Part shown: piece after piece, positions 29,187-39,560 of the stretch | Position numbering within the stretch: position 1 is the first letter of the stretch | How the letters are laid out: each line of letters begins with the position of its first letter | DNA from: an uncultured Nitrospira sp. | GTDB lineage: Bacteria > Nitrospirota > Nitrospiria > Nitrospirales > Nitrospiraceae | Direction of reading: 5' to 3' | Assembly: GCA_902500825.1 (NCBI GenBank) | Contig: CABVRX010000011.1 | Location: 38,409 to 102,408, forward strand | Length of the DNA stretch: 64,000 bases | Made by a program: the position numbers and the translations under genes | The notes under the pieces: model-generated | The model's input: only the letters and a program-made list of their open reading frames with translations | Database searches by the model: none | Told to the model about the DNA's origin: nothing

Positions 29187-30473
29187 TTATGTTTGGATTG
29201 CCGTCGTAACGCTAGGTGCTGATGGTTTGACATAGGGCTTTCTCGCGTTGCGGAAGGAATGCGGTTGGGAACGCTTCATCTGACTCGTCGAGGGATGCCC
29301 ATTCCGACGAACACCGCTTCCTGAGGCAGGCATCGTGAGCGAAGGGGCCTTGCTTCCAGAAGCAACTGGGACTGCACATCCCAAAAGACGCTCGATTTCT
29401 CGGAGTTGATGAGAGTCCTCTCCCGTCACAAAACTTGTGGCGCGACCGGTTGTCTTCATCCGAGCCGTGCGCCCGATACGATGCACATAGTCTTCCGGAC
29501 AGTTGGGAAGGTCGAAATTGATCACGTGGCCGATATTCGCGACATCGATCCCTCGGGCGGCGATATCGGTCGCAACCAACACACGGAAGGCTCCACGCCT
29601 GAAACCTTCCAGCGCGGCCCGCCTCTGCGAGAGACTCCGGTCTCCATGCAACACAGCTACTCGATGGCCCACACGACCGAGCAAGCGCCCCAACCGATCG
29701 GCACGATGCTTCGTCCTGGTGAAGACCAGCGCGGTCGCCTGATCGGCATTCAAAAGCGACAAGAGAAGCTCGGGCTTGTCGTCATGGGACGTGTAATGCA
29801 CCGCTTGCGAGACACCGTCGGCCGTCGTGGCAGACGGTGCGACCATGACACGCACCGGATTGTTCACGCTGGCTTGGACCAACCGCGCCAAGTCCGCCGG
29901 CAAGGTAGCGGAAAACAGCAGCGTCTGTCGCTGCTCCGGCAAGGCATCGAGTATCTGGTTGATTTGCGGGGCAAAACCCATATCCAACATCCGATCCGCT
30001 TCATCCAACACCAGCATCTTAATGGACGACAACAAGACCGTGCCGTTCCACATGTGATCGAGGAGTCGGCCTGGCGTTGCCACTAAAATATCCGGTCGTT
30101 GTCGCAAACCTCGCACTTGGGCTTGCATGTCCGCGCCTCCGACAATCACGGTCGCGGAAACGCGCCGGCTCCGTCCGAGTTTCTCGATCGTAGCCAAGGT
30201 CTGCAATGCGAGCTCGCGAGTGGGAGCCAAGATCAATGCCTGGGGTTGCCCTTTGGGAAGCTGTGCGAGCCGCTCGATGATTGGAATGACGAAGGCAGCA
30301 GTCTTCCCTGTGCCGGTCTGAGCGCATCCGATGACATCTCGCCCCGCAAGCGCGGGCGGGATGGCTCGTTCCTGGATGGGAGTCGGTGAAGCAAAACCAG
30401 CATGAGCCACGTCTTGCAAAAGTGCTTCGGACAAACCGAGAGCGTGAAAACCTACATGAACAGACGTATCCAC
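29187..30473 (-). CDS. DEAD-box RNA helicase (RhlE-like)
   Basis: AQTGTGKT, PTRELA, TPGRL, DEAD, SAT, ARGID, HRIGRTAR. Confidence 0.95.
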   Translation of the reverse strand: MDTSVHVGFHALGLSEALLQDVAHAGFASPTPIQERAIPPALAGRDVIGCAQTGTGKTAAFVIPIIERLAQLPKGQPQALILAPTRELALQTLATIEKLGRSRRVSATVIVGGADMQAQVRGLRQRPDILVATPGRLLDHMWNGTVLLSSIKMLVLDEADRMLDMGFAPQINQILDALPEQRQTLLFSATLPADLARLVQASVNNPVRVMVAPSATTADGVSQAVHYTSHDDKPELLLSLLNADQATALVFTRTKHRADRLGRLLGRVGHRVAVLHGDRSLSQRRAALEGFRRGAFRVLVATDIAARGIDVANIGHVINFDLPNCPEDYVHRIGRTARMKTTGRATSFVTGEDSHQLREIERLLGCAVPVASGSKAPSLTMPASGSGVRRNGHPSTSQMKRSQPHSFRNARKPYVKPSAPSVTTAIQT

Positions 30474-33573: not shown

Positions 33574-33894
33574 TTACGCGCTGAACGAACTGCCGCATCC
33601 GCACGTGGTCTTTGCGGTCGGATTCTTCATCACAAACCCTGAACCCTGCGTCTGGTCCACATAATCCACTTCCGTACCGACCAGCAACGGAGCGCTCTGC
33701 GAATCCATGATGACTTTGATGTCACCCTGTTCGACGAACGTATCATCCTCCTGCATCGAGGACTCCAGCGACATCCCATACTGATAGCCATGGCACCCAC
33801 CGCCTTTGACATACACTCGAAGACCGACGGTCTCCTGATCCTCTTGCATCAGCTCGAGAATCTTCTCTTCAGCTTTCCTTGTGATTGTCATCAT
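33574..33894 (-). CDS. HesB/IscA/ErpA A-type Fe-S carrier
   Basis: GGGCHGYQY and TTCGCGSSF, with an AGGAGG RBS. Confidence 0.92.
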   Translation of the reverse strand: MMTITRKAEEKILELMQEDQETVGLRVYVKGGGCHGYQYGMSLESSMQEDDTFVEQGDIKVIMDSQSAPLLVGTEVDYVDQTQGSGFVMKNPTAKTTCGCGSSFSA

Positions 33895-33956
33895 TGTTCG
33901 ATCCTCCTGTATGCGCACACGTTATCCCAGCTGCTCCTATGAACGGCGATTCTTCG

Positions 33957-34843: not shown

Positions 34844-35242
34844 AGGAGAGGGAGGGAATGCGCGAGAGATAGGACAGTCGAGGTTATTCTGAACCTCATA
34901 AAATTACCCTATCGACCACTCCTGTTATTGTCAATGCTGCGGAATGGAGCAGGTCCTGTAACGCAGTGATTCTATAGAACTATATTTATTTTTCAGACGA
35001 ACATAATCAGTGAGCAAGAAGAGATGCCCGGCACCTTTCGTTTCTATTCCAATACGCACAGTAGCTCTCCGCTTATAGCCGGCTTCATTGTATTTTGTTG
35101 CGATCTTGTCGCGCAGGGTTTTTCTCAACGGGAAACATGGTCACGACCGCTAAAAAGAGAATGCCTCCTACCTGGGACTTTCGACCTATGCCGGGACCAT
35201 CTTAACATTCACCCTCTAAGATGTTTATGAGATAATCCCCCC

Positions 35243-37057
35243 ATGATTCTTAAACGCTGGCTCGTCGGAGACCCTCTCAAGACCGCCCAAGCAAGGCACG
35301 AACGGCTTTCAAAAACGATCGCTCTGGCCATCTTCTCGTCGAACGCCATTTCGTCCGTCGCATACGGAACGGAAGAAATCCTCCTGGTGTTGATTCTAGC
35401 CGGCACGGCGGCGGTCGCCTGGTCGATTCCGGTCAGTTTAGCCATCCTCTTTCTCGTCCTGGTTTTGACGATTTCCTATCGTCAGATCATCTACGAATAT
35501 CCAGAGGGGGGTGGGGCTTACGTCGTCGCACGAACGAACCTCGGCGATCGGCCGGCTCTGGTAGCCGCAGCAGCGCTGATGATCGACTACATCTTGACTG
35601 TGGCCGTCAGTGTTGCAGCCGGCATTGCGGCGCTCACTTCAGCCATCCCAAGTTTGTTCATTCACCGCGAAACCCTGGGACTTGTCGCCATTCTTTTTAT
35701 GATCGTGATGAACCTCCGTGGGGTTCGCGAATCAGGGAAGTTTTTCGCCGTTCCAACTTATTTTGCCATCGGAGCGCTAGGCCTCCTGGTCATAGTAGGA
35801 ACCTTTCGATCTCTTTCCAGCGACGGGACGGTCCTCCCAGCGACCAATTCTGGAGAGACAGAAACACTGACCCTGTTCTTAGTGCTCCGCGCCTTTGCGG
35901 CCGGCTGTTCGGCCGTCACCGGGATGGAGGTTATCTCTAATGGTGTGAAAGCCTTTCGCCCGCCTGAATCAAAGAATGCAGCCACCACCATGGTGTGGAT
36001 GTCCACCATCTTGGCATCGTTGTTCATGGGCATCAGTTGGATGGCTTATCACTACGGCATCCTGGCCAAGATGGATGAAACGGTGATTTCGCAACTGGCT
36101 CGTTTGACGTTCGGCACTGGACCCATCTACTACGCCGTGCAGATCGGCACCATGGCGTTGTTGGTATTGGCGGCCAACAGCGCCTTTGCAGGCTTCCCAC
36201 ATCTGGCGTCGATCCTGGCGCGCGACGGATTCATGCCCCATCAGATGGCGACGTTCGGCGATCGCCTGGTCTTTTCAAACGGCATCATCATCCTGGGGTT
36301 CTTCGCCTGCCTCTTGCTCGTCGTGTTCGAAGGAGATACGCACGCACTGATTCCGTTGTATGCCATCGGCGTGTTCCTATCATTCACGCTCTCTCAGGCC
36401 GGCATGGTGAAACGATGGCTCGTCAAGAAAGGGACGCATTGGCAGACAAAACTGATTGTCAACGGGGTCGGCGCCGTGACCACCGGCATCGCAACGGTTA
36501 TCATCGCCAGCACGAAGTTCATGCAGGGTGCCTGGATTGTTTTCCTGCTCATCACGGTCCTCCTCCTCATGTTTCAGGGGATTCGCTCGCACTATAAGGC
36601 CGTCACCGAACAGATCGCACTGGACCGTCGAGGTGAACGCCCTCCCTTGCCTCGGCGCAATATCGTGATCATTCCGGTCAGCGGTTTGAATCGTGCCGTG
36701 GTTCGTGCGTTGGACTATGCGAGAAGCCGACCCGGAGAAGTTCGCGCCGTTTTCGTCGATGTCGATTCCGCAGAAAGCGCCAAGGTCAAAATCCAGTGGG
36801 CTCAGTGGGGGGGTGGTGTCAACTTGATTGCACTCTCCTCTCCTTACCGCTCAGTTTTGGGATCATTATTGGACTACGTTGAAGAAGTGCTTGAGAAGGA
36901 CCCAAATACCTGGATCACCGTCGTGATCCCTGAGATTCTTCCAGCCAGATGGTGGCAGAACATCCTGCATAACCAACGGGCGCTGATGCTCAAAGCCGCG
37001 CTGCTTTTCAAAGAGCGGGTGATTCTTATCGACGTTCCCTACCATTTGACGCGATGA
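35243..37057 (+). CDS. APC family permease, KimA/YdaO-like
   Basis: LVGDPLKT, SSNAISSVAYGTEE, GGGAYVVA, TGMEVISNG, and a soluble C-terminal domain (SPYRS, WWQNILHNQ). Confidence 0.9.
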   Translation: MILKRWLVGDPLKTAQARHERLSKTIALAIFSSNAISSVAYGTEEILLVLILAGTAAVAWSIPVSLAILFLVLVLTISYRQIIYEYPEGGGAYVVARTNLGDRPALVAAAALMIDYILTVAVSVAAGIAALTSAIPSLFIHRETLGLVAILFMIVMNLRGVRESGKFFAVPTYFAIGALGLLVIVGTFRSLSSDGTVLPATNSGETETLTLFLVLRAFAAGCSAVTGMEVISNGVKAFRPPESKNAATTMVWMSTILASLFMGISWMAYHYGILAKMDETVISQLARLTFGTGPIYYAVQIGTMALLVLAANSAFAGFPHLASILARDGFMPHQMATFGDRLVFSNGIIILGFFACLLLVVFEGDTHALIPLYAIGVFLSFTLSQAGMVKRWLVKKGTHWQTKLIVNGVGAVTTGIATVIIASTKFMQGAWIVFLLITVLLLMFQGIRSHYKAVTEQIALDRRGERPPLPRRNIVIIPVSGLNRAVVRALDYARSRPGEVRAVFVDVDSAESAKVKIQWAQWGGGVNLIALSSPYRSVLGSLLDYVEEVLEKDPNTWITVVIPEILPARWWQNILHNQRALMLKAALLFKERVILIDVPYHLTR

Positions 37058-38097
37058 CGATGGTTCGTGAAGCGCAACTTCGGATCTCTTACCTCATCCT
37101 CTTCACCTCTTGCCTGACCATAGCTTCTCCGGTTCATGCCTTCACGATCACGGAACCTGACACAGGAACTATGTTGATCGCTGGGAGCACCGTGATCGCG
37201 CGTGTGGACCTTGGAAAGGATACTGGCATCGTTAAAGTCCGCTACTACTGGTACGGCGAACAAGACGAGGTCTTGGTCGAACAAGAAGACTCAACGGCCA
37301 CGGGCTCTATCGTGGCGCCGGTAGCGATGGTGAGCTCAGGCGAACAGGAGTACCCATTTGGGGGCCCGCTGAAAGCGCCGCAAAACGGCGTTGGCCCGAT
37401 GCGGCTGTTGGCGGTAGCCGAAGTCTCCCACGGACGATTTGGAACTAGATCTGTCTTCGATGAAGTCATCGTGAACGTGGAACCTTCTGCCGTCCTCACC
37501 ACGATCGACTTTGCAACGGACAAGCCTTTGCAACTCGGCAGAGCAGGACAGTCCTCCGCCTTCGGCCATGTGGACTCGCTGGGCAAGATTTTCGAACTCC
37601 CGGTCGTTGCCGACTTTGCCGACGGCATCACCCGACGCATCAGCACGCCAGCCAGTGGCACAAGTTACACATCTTCCAATGATAAAGTTATTAAGGTCGT
37701 GAGGGATGGTTTGCTTCAAATCGTCGGCAACGGGAAGACCACCATCACCGTAAGCAATCGCGGAAAATACGCTTCTCTCGATATGGCCGTGAACGTAAAC
37801 GACGAGCCGAACGAACCGCCGATCGCTGACGCAGGAACGAACAAAGTAATCAAGGCAGGCTCTCGTGTGAAACTCAGTGGGCTGAAGAGCCGTGACCCGG
37901 AAGGCGAAGCCCTCTATTATAGCTGGAGCCAAGTGCGCGGCAGCAAAATTTCGTTGCTCGATGCCAACAACTCAGAGGCTTCCTTCCTCGCACCAACCGT
38001 CTCAGAGCCTCGGACATATCGTTTTAAATTACGTGTGACGGACAAGAAGGGAGCCGACAGTTTGCCGGCGTTTGTGGATGTGACGGTGGAACCGTAA
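37054..38097 (+). CDS. Secreted Ig-like/PKD domain protein
   Basis: Signal peptide, NEPPIADAG, LSGLKSRDPEG...YSWSQV, FKLRVTD. ATGA overlap with the permease. Confidence 0.8.
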   Translation: MTMVREAQLRISYLILFTSCLTIASPVHAFTITEPDTGTMLIAGSTVIARVDLGKDTGIVKVRYYWYGEQDEVLVEQEDSTATGSIVAPVAMVSSGEQEYPFGGPLKAPQNGVGPMRLLAVAEVSHGRFGTRSVFDEVIVNVEPSAVLTTIDFATDKPLQLGRAGQSSAFGHVDSLGKIFELPVVADFADGITRRISTPASGTSYTSSNDKVIKVVRDGLLQIVGNGKTTITVSNRGKYASLDMAVNVNDEPNEPPIADAGTNKVIKAGSRVKLSGLKSRDPEGEALYYSWSQVRGSKISLLDANNSEASFLAPTVSEPRTYRFKLRVTDKKGADSLPAFVDVTVEP

Positions 38098-38141: not shown

Positions 38142-38834
38142 TCAGCAAAAATTAGAGCGGACATATTCGGTAACTTTCTCTATAGCGATACTCGGAACAG
38201 TAATAACCAATCCATCGAGCAACATGGATGGAAACTTCAGGACATATTTCTCAGATTCAATATCGCTTACATCGATCTCCGCTGTGTACCAGCCAAACGT
38301 TTCCCATAGATCTTGGCCAAGAATCCTGTGAATTGTCTTTTGCTCATAACCAGATCTTCCTCGGAACTCAACAGTCGGAGGAAACGCGTAAGTCGCATTC
38401 ACATACGTCCCAAAACTCCCCTCATTTCTCATCTGATAGGACTTGGTTTCCTCAAGCTTAGCAACTGGCTCATGGCGGCGTATGGAAGCTTGCCGTTCGG
38501 ATTCAAATCGTCGATACTCGTCATATATGAACTGCGCCAATGATTTTCTTCCGACAGTGCCCCCTTGAATGTTGCTGATAAGAACTTCTTGATCTTGAAG
38601 TTGAAGTACGTGGCCTTCTCCAAGATGAACCACAAACGCTATTCTCCCTCCTCCCGTATAGATTTTCATTCCAAGTTCATCATGCAGTTTAAAACCAAGT
38701 ACGTTGTCAGGGCCATGACATGCTGTGTAAAAGTACCCTCCCGGTCCAATCGGCTTGAGATAAGTTTGCTTGGTATAGATACAGGAAGTCAGCAGGATCT
38801 GCATCAATGCAAGACCCAATACTCCTATTCGCAT
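38142..38834 (-). CDS. AT-rich lipoprotein of unknown function
   Basis: Lipobox LTSC. Visibly lower GC than its flanks. Confidence 0.7.
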   Translation of the reverse strand: MRIGVLGLALMQILLTSCIYTKQTYLKPIGPGGYFYTACHGPDNVLGFKLHDELGMKIYTGGGRIAFVVHLGEGHVLQLQDQEVLISNIQGGTVGRKSLAQFIYDEYRRFESERQASIRRHEPVAKLEETKSYQMRNEGSFGTYVNATYAFPPTVEFRGRSGYEQKTIHRILGQDLWETFGWYTAEIDVSDIESEKYVLKFPSMLLDGLVITVPSIAIEKVTEYVRSNFC

Positions 38835-38926: not shown

Positions 38927-39322
38927 CTACAGCTTCTTGCCGATGTGCTTTCGTAGCCACATGGTCAAAGCATCTTTGCCCAGCTCCCCAGCTGCAACTT
39001 GGAGAGTGACAGCCTCCAGACCTTTGGGGTCTGGAAAGTCCTTAATCCCATTCAGGTAGAGAAATACAAGCGCAGACAGAACCGCTGCCCGCTTGTTTCC
39101 ATCAACAAAGGGATGGTTCTGGGCAATGTGAAACATATAGGCCGCTGCCATTGCAGGAAGGTCTTCATGGAGATAGTCGCCGCCGAATTGTTGTCTAGGC
39201 ATTGCCACAGCGGCATCCAGCAGGCCGTGATCTCTCACGCCATGTGAGCCCCCATCAATATCGATGGTATCGGTGTGGAGCAACAGAACGTCGTCCACGC
39301 TGAGAAAGGTGATGTCTTCCAC
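38927..39322 (-). CDS. doc: Doc/Fic family toxin
   Basis: HGVRDHGLLDAAVAMP and HPFVDGNKRAA. GTG start just after the antitoxin stop. Confidence 0.9.
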   Translation of the reverse strand: MEDITFLSVDDVLLLHTDTIDIDGGSHGVRDHGLLDAAVAMPRQQFGGDYLHEDLPAMAAAYMFHIAQNHPFVDGNKRAAVLSALVFLYLNGIKDFPDPKGLEAVTLQVAAGELGKDALTMWLRKHIGKKL

Positions 39323-39326
39323 TGCA

Positions 39327-39560
39327 TCAGTCCGCAAGCCGCTTTAACATCGGTCCATACTTCTTCCGCAGCTCTTTGATCGTGGCCTTCATGCGGTCTG
39401 GACCAACACCGACGTTCGCCGGCGTAATGACAAGCGCATTACCATTGACTGTGACCTGCAGTGGAGTTTCTTCCGTAATACCAAGTGCCTGCATTACTGG
39501 CTTTTCAATAATCAATGCTGCGCTATTCCCATGCTTTTGCAATCTCTTGATCATGCTCAC
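39327..39560 (-). CDS. AbrB/MazE/SpoVT-like antitoxin
   Basis: KHGNSAALII...LGIT...VTVNGNALVITP. Directly upstream of doc. Confidence 0.85.
   Translation of the reverse strand: MSMIKRLQKHGNSAALIIEKPVMQALGITEETPLQVTVNGNALVITPANVGVGPDRMKATIKELRKKYGPMLKRLAD

Follow-up and report, generated by a model that had tools for sequence, protein, structure and literature searches.

An aspartate in the first transmembrane (TM) helix, Asp36 in Bacillus subtilis KimA, Asp23 in Escherichia coli Kup and the equivalent Asp of plant HAK5, is regarded as a hallmark of the whole KUP/HAK/KT family. In KimA (YdaO), the K+ ligands are Tyr43, both the carbonyl and the carboxylate of Asp36, Thr230 and Tyr377; the thin gate on the intracellular side consists of Asp36 and Tyr377, and a second K+, which is trans-inhibitory, is in contact with Asp36 as well (PMC6994465, PMC10284832). 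Complementation of K+ uptake is lost in the mutants D36A, D36N and Y43A, and D36A loses K+/Rb+ exchange too; the E233A/Q mutants lose coupled uptake and keep exchange, D117 is dispensable, and Gln324 is among the residues of the cytoplasmic tunnel (PMC6994465). Canonical Kup/HAK/KT proteins (PF02705) belong to the same superfamily and have, by structure-based alignment, the same three functional acidic positions (D23, E116 and E229 in E. coli Kup) (PMC6994465). Asp36 is presented as the central and indispensable residue of KimA, serving K+ binding, the gate and trans-inhibition. A contig of an uncultured Nitrospira sp. (CABVRX010000011.1), of which a stretch of 64,000 nucleotides was analysed (the window; all positions are counted from its first letter), carries at 35243-37057 a kimA-like gene whose product has Asn at this position, the same change that makes the B. 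subtilis protein inactive.

Homology searches clearly indicate the relationship of the product to KimA. A phmmer search of all PDB chains aligned residues 3-602 of the window protein with residues 5-605 of B. subtilis KimA (E 4.1e-156, identity about 42% over the whole length), and KimA (6s3k, 8b70, 8b71) was the sole family matched, so the first-pass annotation of the gene as a KimA-like transporter stands. The only Pfam match is AA_permease_2 (score 84.6 bits, cut-off 27, over residues 29-436); PF02705 (K_trans, the canonical Kup family) gives no match to the window protein at E<=0.001, and NCBIfam has no model for it. An AlphaFold2 model built from 60 homologues (predicted local distance difference test score 88, predicted TM-score 0.82) has a TM1 break at residue 38, a TM6 break at 226-228, a TM5 helix at 161-192 and a C-terminal alpha/beta domain at 472-601. 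Foldseek gave TM-scores of 0.81-0.91 to 8b70, 8b71 and 6s3k, followed by the cation-chloride cotransporters (CCC) KCC4, KCC1/3 and NKCC1, which share the APC/LeuT fold and differ in being eukaryotic and Cl--coupled, with an identity of 11-13%. The window protein thus has the full-length homology, the 12-TM LeuT/APC fold with broken TM1 and TM6 and the swapped cytoplasmic C-terminal domain that characterise the KimA subfamily, and lacks its acidic TM1 K+ ligand. By descent and fold, the gene is an orthologue of kimA, which encodes an APC-fold K+/H+ symporter of the KUP family, and represents a derived lineage.

Residues 32-41 of the window protein read SSNAISSVAY, and the phmmer alignment places Asn34 on Asp36 of KimA, Tyr41 under Tyr43 and, within the stretch TGMEVISN (TGVEAISN in KimA), Glu229 under the proton-coupling Glu233; the earlier claims of an Asn at the K+-site Asp and of a retained Tyr and coupling Glu are therefore borne out. 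The other site residues of KimA, namely Asp117, Tyr118, Thr121, Ser125, Thr230, Asn237 and Tyr377, are conserved as well (the last three as T226, N233 and Y373). Apart from Asp36->Asn, the differences from KimA include Phe177->Ala, Leu229->Val, Val232->Met and Arg337->His.

The substitution is rare in the family as a whole. From 1.84 billion cluster representatives (50% identity) searched with HMMER, the best 150 relatives were aligned; in the Asp36 column, Asp was found in 143 of the 145 informative sequences, Asn in one (P0263) and Ala in one, the remaining five being fragments with a gap. The sequence with Ala (P0236, 502 aa, motif ASATLSS) is a single truncated representative that could be erroneous or just a fragment. 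Among the closest homologues of the window protein (85-95% identity), named as Nitrospira sp. or Candidatus Nitrospira nitrosa, SSNAISSVAY was read in 120 of 120. The first-pass annotation had itself raised a strain-specific or sequencing change as what could undo its claim; this is excluded, since Asn occurs in all 120 closest homologues and in all 40 members of the clade described below, with both Asn codons in use, and marks an old clade under purifying selection. A literature search for natural Asn variants of KimA or KUP, or for KimA in Nitrospira or Francisella, found nothing relevant in the collection of papers searched, and public annotation gives both site variants like names (APC family permease or KimA).

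A KimA-like gene is present in 142 of 151 Nitrospiraceae genomes, and 71 of these genes were read. (The 151-genome tallies of KimA-like, Kup and KdpA genes include the unpublished genomes G006, G053 and G076, which contribute no sequence, no typed state and no named example.) The full-length homologues comprise 40 Asn forms and 26 Asp forms (n=66). The Asp forms have the motifs SSDALSS and ASDPLSS, and the Asn forms SSNAISS, SSNNISS, SSNSISS, SSNALSS and CPNPLSS, position 35 varying between A, N, S and P across the subgroups of the Asn clade. The cultured species Nitrospira tepida has the Asn form, annotated as potassium transporter KimA. All 40 members of the Asn clade use AAC or AAT, and the Asp forms GAC or GAT; in total, Asn was encoded by AAC 27 times and by AAT 14 times. 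Outside the family but within the phylum, 13 of 13 readable homologues carry Asp. A phylogeny of the two variants, proposed in the first-pass annotation as a check, best explains the Asn forms as one clade nested inside the Asp forms: in a maximum-likelihood tree of 79 sequences all 40 grouped together (SH-like approximate likelihood ratio test, SH-aLRT, 99). When 46 columns around the site were removed, a quick free search split the Asn group in two; with the same columns removed, the tree keeping the Asn forms together had a likelihood higher by 6.9 log units and was not rejected (approximately unbiased test, p-AU 0.57). A single origin of the Nitrospiraceae Asn forms is the best reading of these trees, though not a proven one. 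Pairwise ratios of non-synonymous to synonymous substitution (dN/dS) lie at 0.04-0.10 for members of the Asn clade, and Asp-type pairs give the same values.

The distribution of the two forms is patchy, each of the genus codes g1, g2, g5 and g18 holding both, so that lateral exchange or repeated change is needed. A recent allele swap, considered for the Asp-type genome G009 inside the window's genus, found no support, the flanking genes being as diverged as the KimA homologue. The Asp-type Nitrospiraceae orthologues (for example L033, L034 and L041) are 64-72% identical to the window protein and share its locus, length and other site residues, and mostly the downstream gene for a PKD-domain protein; they differ in the motif (SSDALSS/ASDPLSS) and in having Phe175, Leu225, Arg320, Ser219/Ser220 and Ser236. 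Asn and Asp forms sit at one syntenic locus, which in most genomes examined has repeat-protein genes upstream, the PKD-protein gene immediately downstream and a gene of about 520 aa on the other strand. This shared locus rules out the Asn form being a paralogue with a context of its own; the sole exceptions are the additional Asp copies of G145 and G093, which are found at other places.

Asn-type and Asp-type copies occur together in three genomes (L080 in G145, L081 in G093, L064 in G137), which suggests that the two forms are not fully redundant. In G145 and G093 the Asp copy has an unrelated context, the Asn copy being at the usual locus in G145 and assumed to be so in G093. Another genome has tandem Asn-type copies 192 nt apart (G130:C111:23328-27152; L012, L072), one with SSNAISS and 90% identity to the window protein, the other with SSNNISS and 77% identity.

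The loss of the carboxylate is accompanied by a set of other changes around an otherwise conserved site. Y41, Y116, T119, S123, T226, E229, N233 and Y373 are invariant in all 40 Asn-clade sequences, and D115 is kept in 36 of 40. Changes common to essentially the whole clade are D34N, F175A (39 Ala, 1 Ser), L225V, the loss of Ser220 and S355A; a crown of 35 sequences, including the window protein, adds L36I, V228M, I306L, R320H/Q and S236K. Position 175 is aromatic in 149 of 149 informative representatives (F 139, Y 10), positions 225 and 228 are next to Thr226 and Glu229 where TM6 is broken, and position 320 is Arg in all 26 Asp-type Nitrospiraceae sequences and in 109 of 150 representatives. 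A shift of the charge to another position is ruled out, as no gain of an acidic residue was found in the TM domain of the 40 Asn-clade sequences. The co-substitutions F175A, L225V, V228M and R320H/Q support the idea of remodelled ion handling. With its site remodelled and a residue missing that mutagenesis has called essential, the window protein is a genuine and unusual case.

A second group with Asn was found in the Francisellaceae. The permeases of Francisella, Allofrancisella and Pseudofrancisella (P0263, P0272-P0292) have Asn (SSNALSS) in 21 of 21 sequences covering the site and keep the other site residues; they are 63-94% identical to each other and about 35% identical to the window protein, and their nearest relatives (49%) carry Asp. 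Asn therefore arose at least twice independently, in Nitrospiraceae and in Francisellaceae, and persisted both times. The accompanying changes in Francisellaceae are A174M, M225L, A230S, V231Y (next to Glu229), A316T and L320T (TM8), Phe175 being retained. Convergent co-substitution was considered and rejected: no positions change identically in the two families, only the same segments are involved (174, 225-231, 316/320), and this overlap is not significant given 76 clade-specific positions. In both Asn lineages all other site residues have been preserved, with purifying selection strong, and as two old lineages they offer a natural experiment on K+ binding in the LeuT fold without a carboxylate.

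The K+ importers of the 151 Nitrospiraceae genomes, which are drafts, were surveyed by known families (Kup, Kdp, Trk/Ktr) and by the K+-channel pore. A full Kup match was found in about 40 genomes, KdpA in 59 and TrkH/KtrB in 8; the Pfam cut-off for Kup was exceeded in 44, a few of these matches being the KimA-like gene itself. No K+ importer of Nitrospiraceae is as widespread as the KimA-like gene with its 142 genomes, and this gene occurs as two site variants. Among genomes that are typed and at least 95% complete, Kup, Kdp and Trk/Ktr are all missing from 12 of 28 with the Asn form only and from 6 of 15 with the Asp form only. In five of these Asn-only genomes, all 99% complete (G114, G126, G091, G134 and G108), a K+-channel pore is likewise missing at E<=0.1, and the sole strong RCK (TrkA_N) match in each is a frame of about 680-700 aa, which in G126, the one that was read, is a CPA2 cation/proton antiporter. 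By these profile searches, no K+ uptake system or channel other than the Asn form is recognisable in the five genomes.

The simplest reading, as cells need K+, is that both forms serve the same purpose, and retained K+ import through a remodelled, uncharged site is the interpretation that we moderately favour on comparative grounds. The first-pass annotation had taken the substitution to point to a different substrate or ion coupling; a different substrate is not favoured, given the shared locus, the similar share of Asn-only and Asp-only genomes without other importers and the five genomes in which only the Asn form is recognisable. In the proposed course of events, the TM1 carboxylate ligand would have been replaced by Asn through one G->A change; on the stem of the clade, F175A would have removed an aromatic side chain from the middle of TM5 and L225V would have made the last residue of TM6a smaller; L36I, V228M, the loss of the tunnel Arg (R320H/Q) and the gain of Lys at 236 would have come later. 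The ion may then be held by uncharged oxygens, those of the Asn34 side chain and of backbone carbonyls together with Tyr41, Thr226 and Tyr373, and Glu229 would still carry the proton. Loss of Arg320 after loss of Asp34 would be expected if the path must stay cation-friendly, a suggestion made less straightforward by the added Lys236. KCC4 offers a precedent for a neutral K+ site in this part of the fold: at its TM1/TM6 breaks, K+ has only uncharged ligands, which are backbone carbonyls and the hydroxyl of a Tyr (PMC7200160). Compared with KimA, there may be differences in affinity, in coupling and in regulation; the affinity, the pH dependence or the trans-inhibition would probably have changed, and the substrate would not. 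F175A, L225V, V228M and R320H/Q make up a direct and inexpensive mutant series with which to look for suppression of D36N in the model protein.

Several points weigh against retained K+ import. In B. subtilis KimA, D36N and D36A destroy complementation of K+ uptake and D36A destroys K+/Rb+ exchange (PMC6994465). The TM domain of the Asn-clade proteins shows no new acidic residue at any other position, the gain of Lys236 in the crown weakens a simple argument from charge balance, and the physical coupling of residues 34, 175, 225, 228 and 320 is one that we infer. The claim of a sole importer rests on four Pfam families and the channel pore in 99%-complete drafts, where other or non-specific K+ paths may exist. 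The window's own genome has both Kup and Kdp (a separate true Kup, 608 bits, lies on another contig), so the kimA-like gene is not needed there for K+ supply.

A broader proposal is that the Asn clades of Nitrospiraceae and Francisellaceae constitute a functionally new KUP subfamily, with either a neutral-site mechanism of altered coupling (for example uniport, or anion-linked transport as in CCC) or an altered selectivity (for example for NH4+ in the nitrifier), in place of K+/H+ symporters that tolerate a substitution; this is possible but doubtful. Taken by itself, a change of energetics with K+ kept, that is, a potential-driven uniport, a co-transport with an anion as in CCC, or a loss of trans-inhibition, seems unlikely. 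It would suit the fact that Asp36 serves the thin gate and the trans-inhibitory K+ site besides binding (PMC6994465), that CCC transporters couple a neutral K+ site with Cl- (PMC7200160), and that removal of a buried charge beside Glu233 should shift the pKa of the latter; however, Glu229, Asn233 and Asp115 are retained, the sequence has no sign of an anion site, and the tunnel Arg has been lost, not gained.

A changed substrate is quite unlikely. Candidates would be NH4+ (an appealing option for a nitrifier), Na+ or some uncharged solute in a larger and less polar pocket (F175A, S219A/S220A), and they would agree with the effect of D36N on K+ uptake by B. subtilis KimA, with the replacement of an always-aromatic residue by Ala, with the loss of several hydroxyls near TM6a and with the presence of Kup and Kdp for K+ in the window's genome. 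All other K+ ligands and gates are invariant, however, the Asn forms sit at the locus of the Asp forms, other K+ importers are missing equally often in Asn-only and Asp-only genomes (five of the former having none at all), the second Asn clade belongs to Francisellaceae, which are not nitrifiers, and loss of the tunnel Arg suits a cation better than a neutral or anionic substrate. A non-transporting derivative, either a transceptor that senses K+ or acts as a regulatory partner, or else a protein retained because its cytoplasmic domain has some other function, would fit the inactivation of the model protein by Asn and the pairing with a gene for a secreted PKD-domain protein, but is very improbable given the strong purifying selection over the whole TM domain, including gates and coupling Glu, the presence of the PKD partner beside Asp forms too and the existence of genomes without any other K+ importer. 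Taken together, the evidence moderately favours retained K+ import over these three alternatives.

The regulation of the gene probably also differs from that of B. subtilis kimA. No Rfam family, including the ydaO/cyclic di-AMP (c-di-AMP) riboswitch, reached its gathering score in the whole window, and in 1 kb around the start nothing appeared at E<=10 except one irrelevant snoRNA match at E=1; a hidden riboswitch is thus rejected even at permissive thresholds, in agreement with the first-pass annotation, which had seen no ydaO riboswitch upstream. The block of about 80 nt preceding the ATG is conserved across eight genomes although the DNA further upstream is unrelated, and contains a promoter-like element with an extended -10 (TTCACC-17-(TG)GATAAT, 35208-35236) ending 6 nt before the ATG. 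No Shine-Dalgarno sequence is visible before this ATG. Since the -10 ends so close to the start and a Shine-Dalgarno sequence is not seen, the mRNA is probably leaderless, as read from the DNA, which would leave no room for a riboswitch. Two more conserved blocks, TCTTTCGACCTAT and CATCTTAACATTCACC, lie in the same region of about 80 nt and could be operator sites. A diadenylate cyclase domain (DAC, PF02457) was not found in the window's genome, which is 99.8% complete. Arg337 of KimA contacts c-di-AMP (PMC10284832), and the corresponding residue is His in most Nitrospiraceae, in Asp and Asn forms alike. All three marks of the c-di-AMP-regulated KimA of Firmicutes type, the ydaO riboswitch, Arg337 and the cyclase, are thus missing, and c-di-AMP control of the Nitrospira protein is probably absent.

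The features of the gene and its immediate surroundings are listed in Table 1. The PKD-protein gene follows the KimA homologue in 13 of the 19 syntenic loci examined (the window counted), behind Asp and Asn forms alike, and residues 1-250 of the 347-aa product have no Pfam match; the PKD protein may be an accessory or co-regulated partner of the transporter.

Table 1. Coordinates of the kimA-like gene, its site residues and adjoining features in the window
Feature	Position	Strand	Basis or comparison
Conserved block of ~80 nt before the ATG, with promoter-like element inside	35163..35242	+	Alignment of 8 genomes; promoter scan
kimA-like coding sequence, 604 aa	35243..37057	+	Open reading frame; full-length match to KimA 6s3k; 12-TM APC/LeuT fold and cytoplasmic C-terminal domain
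Codon AAC, Asn34 (KimA Asp36, K+ ligand, intracellular thin gate)	35342..35344	+	phmmer alignment
Ile36 (KimA Leu38), TM1, clade-linked L->I	35348..35350	+	Ile in 34/40 of Asn clade vs Leu in 26/26 Asp forms
Tyr41, retained (KimA Tyr43, extracellular gate, K+ ligand)	35363..35365	+	Alignment
TM3 D115-Y116-x-x-T119-x-x-x-S123, retained (KimA D117, Y118, T121, S125)	35585..35611	+	Alignment
Ala175, mid-TM5 (KimA Phe177)	35765..35767	+	Ala in 39/40 of Asn clade vs Phe in 26/26 Asp forms
TM6 break V225-T226-G227-M228-E229	35915..35929	+	T226 is K+ ligand T230 and E229 proton-coupling E233 of KimA; V225 and M228 clade-specific
Lys236, gained in crown of Asn clade	35948..35950	+	Lys in 33/40 vs Ser in 20/26 Asp forms
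His320 (KimA Gln324, lining of cytoplasmic tunnel)	36200..36202	+	H 28, Q 4, R 5 of 40 vs R in 26/26 Asp forms
His333 (KimA Arg337, only c-di-AMP contact of TM domain)	36239..36241	+	Alignment
Tyr373, retained (KimA Tyr377, K+ ligand, thin gate)	36359..36361	+	Alignment
Secreted protein, 347 aa, signal peptide, C-terminal PKD domain	37054..38097	+	Start overlaps stop of kimA-like gene by ATGA

The region upstream of the gene in the window (34873-35242) is unlike that of most relatives, the usual repeat-protein genes being absent within 5 kb; in their place are short unassigned open reading frames (ORFs), a gene for an Fe-S cluster biosynthesis protein (33574-33918, minus strand) and one for a DEAD-box helicase (29187-30473, minus strand). 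A PHROG search with two neighbouring unassigned ORFs gave no matches, and a 230-aa ORF (38142-38834, minus strand) had no Pfam, NCBIfam or PHROG match. Beside this ORF, two genes downstream of the transporter, a 136-aa protein of the Fic/DOC family is encoded on the minus strand (38927-39337).

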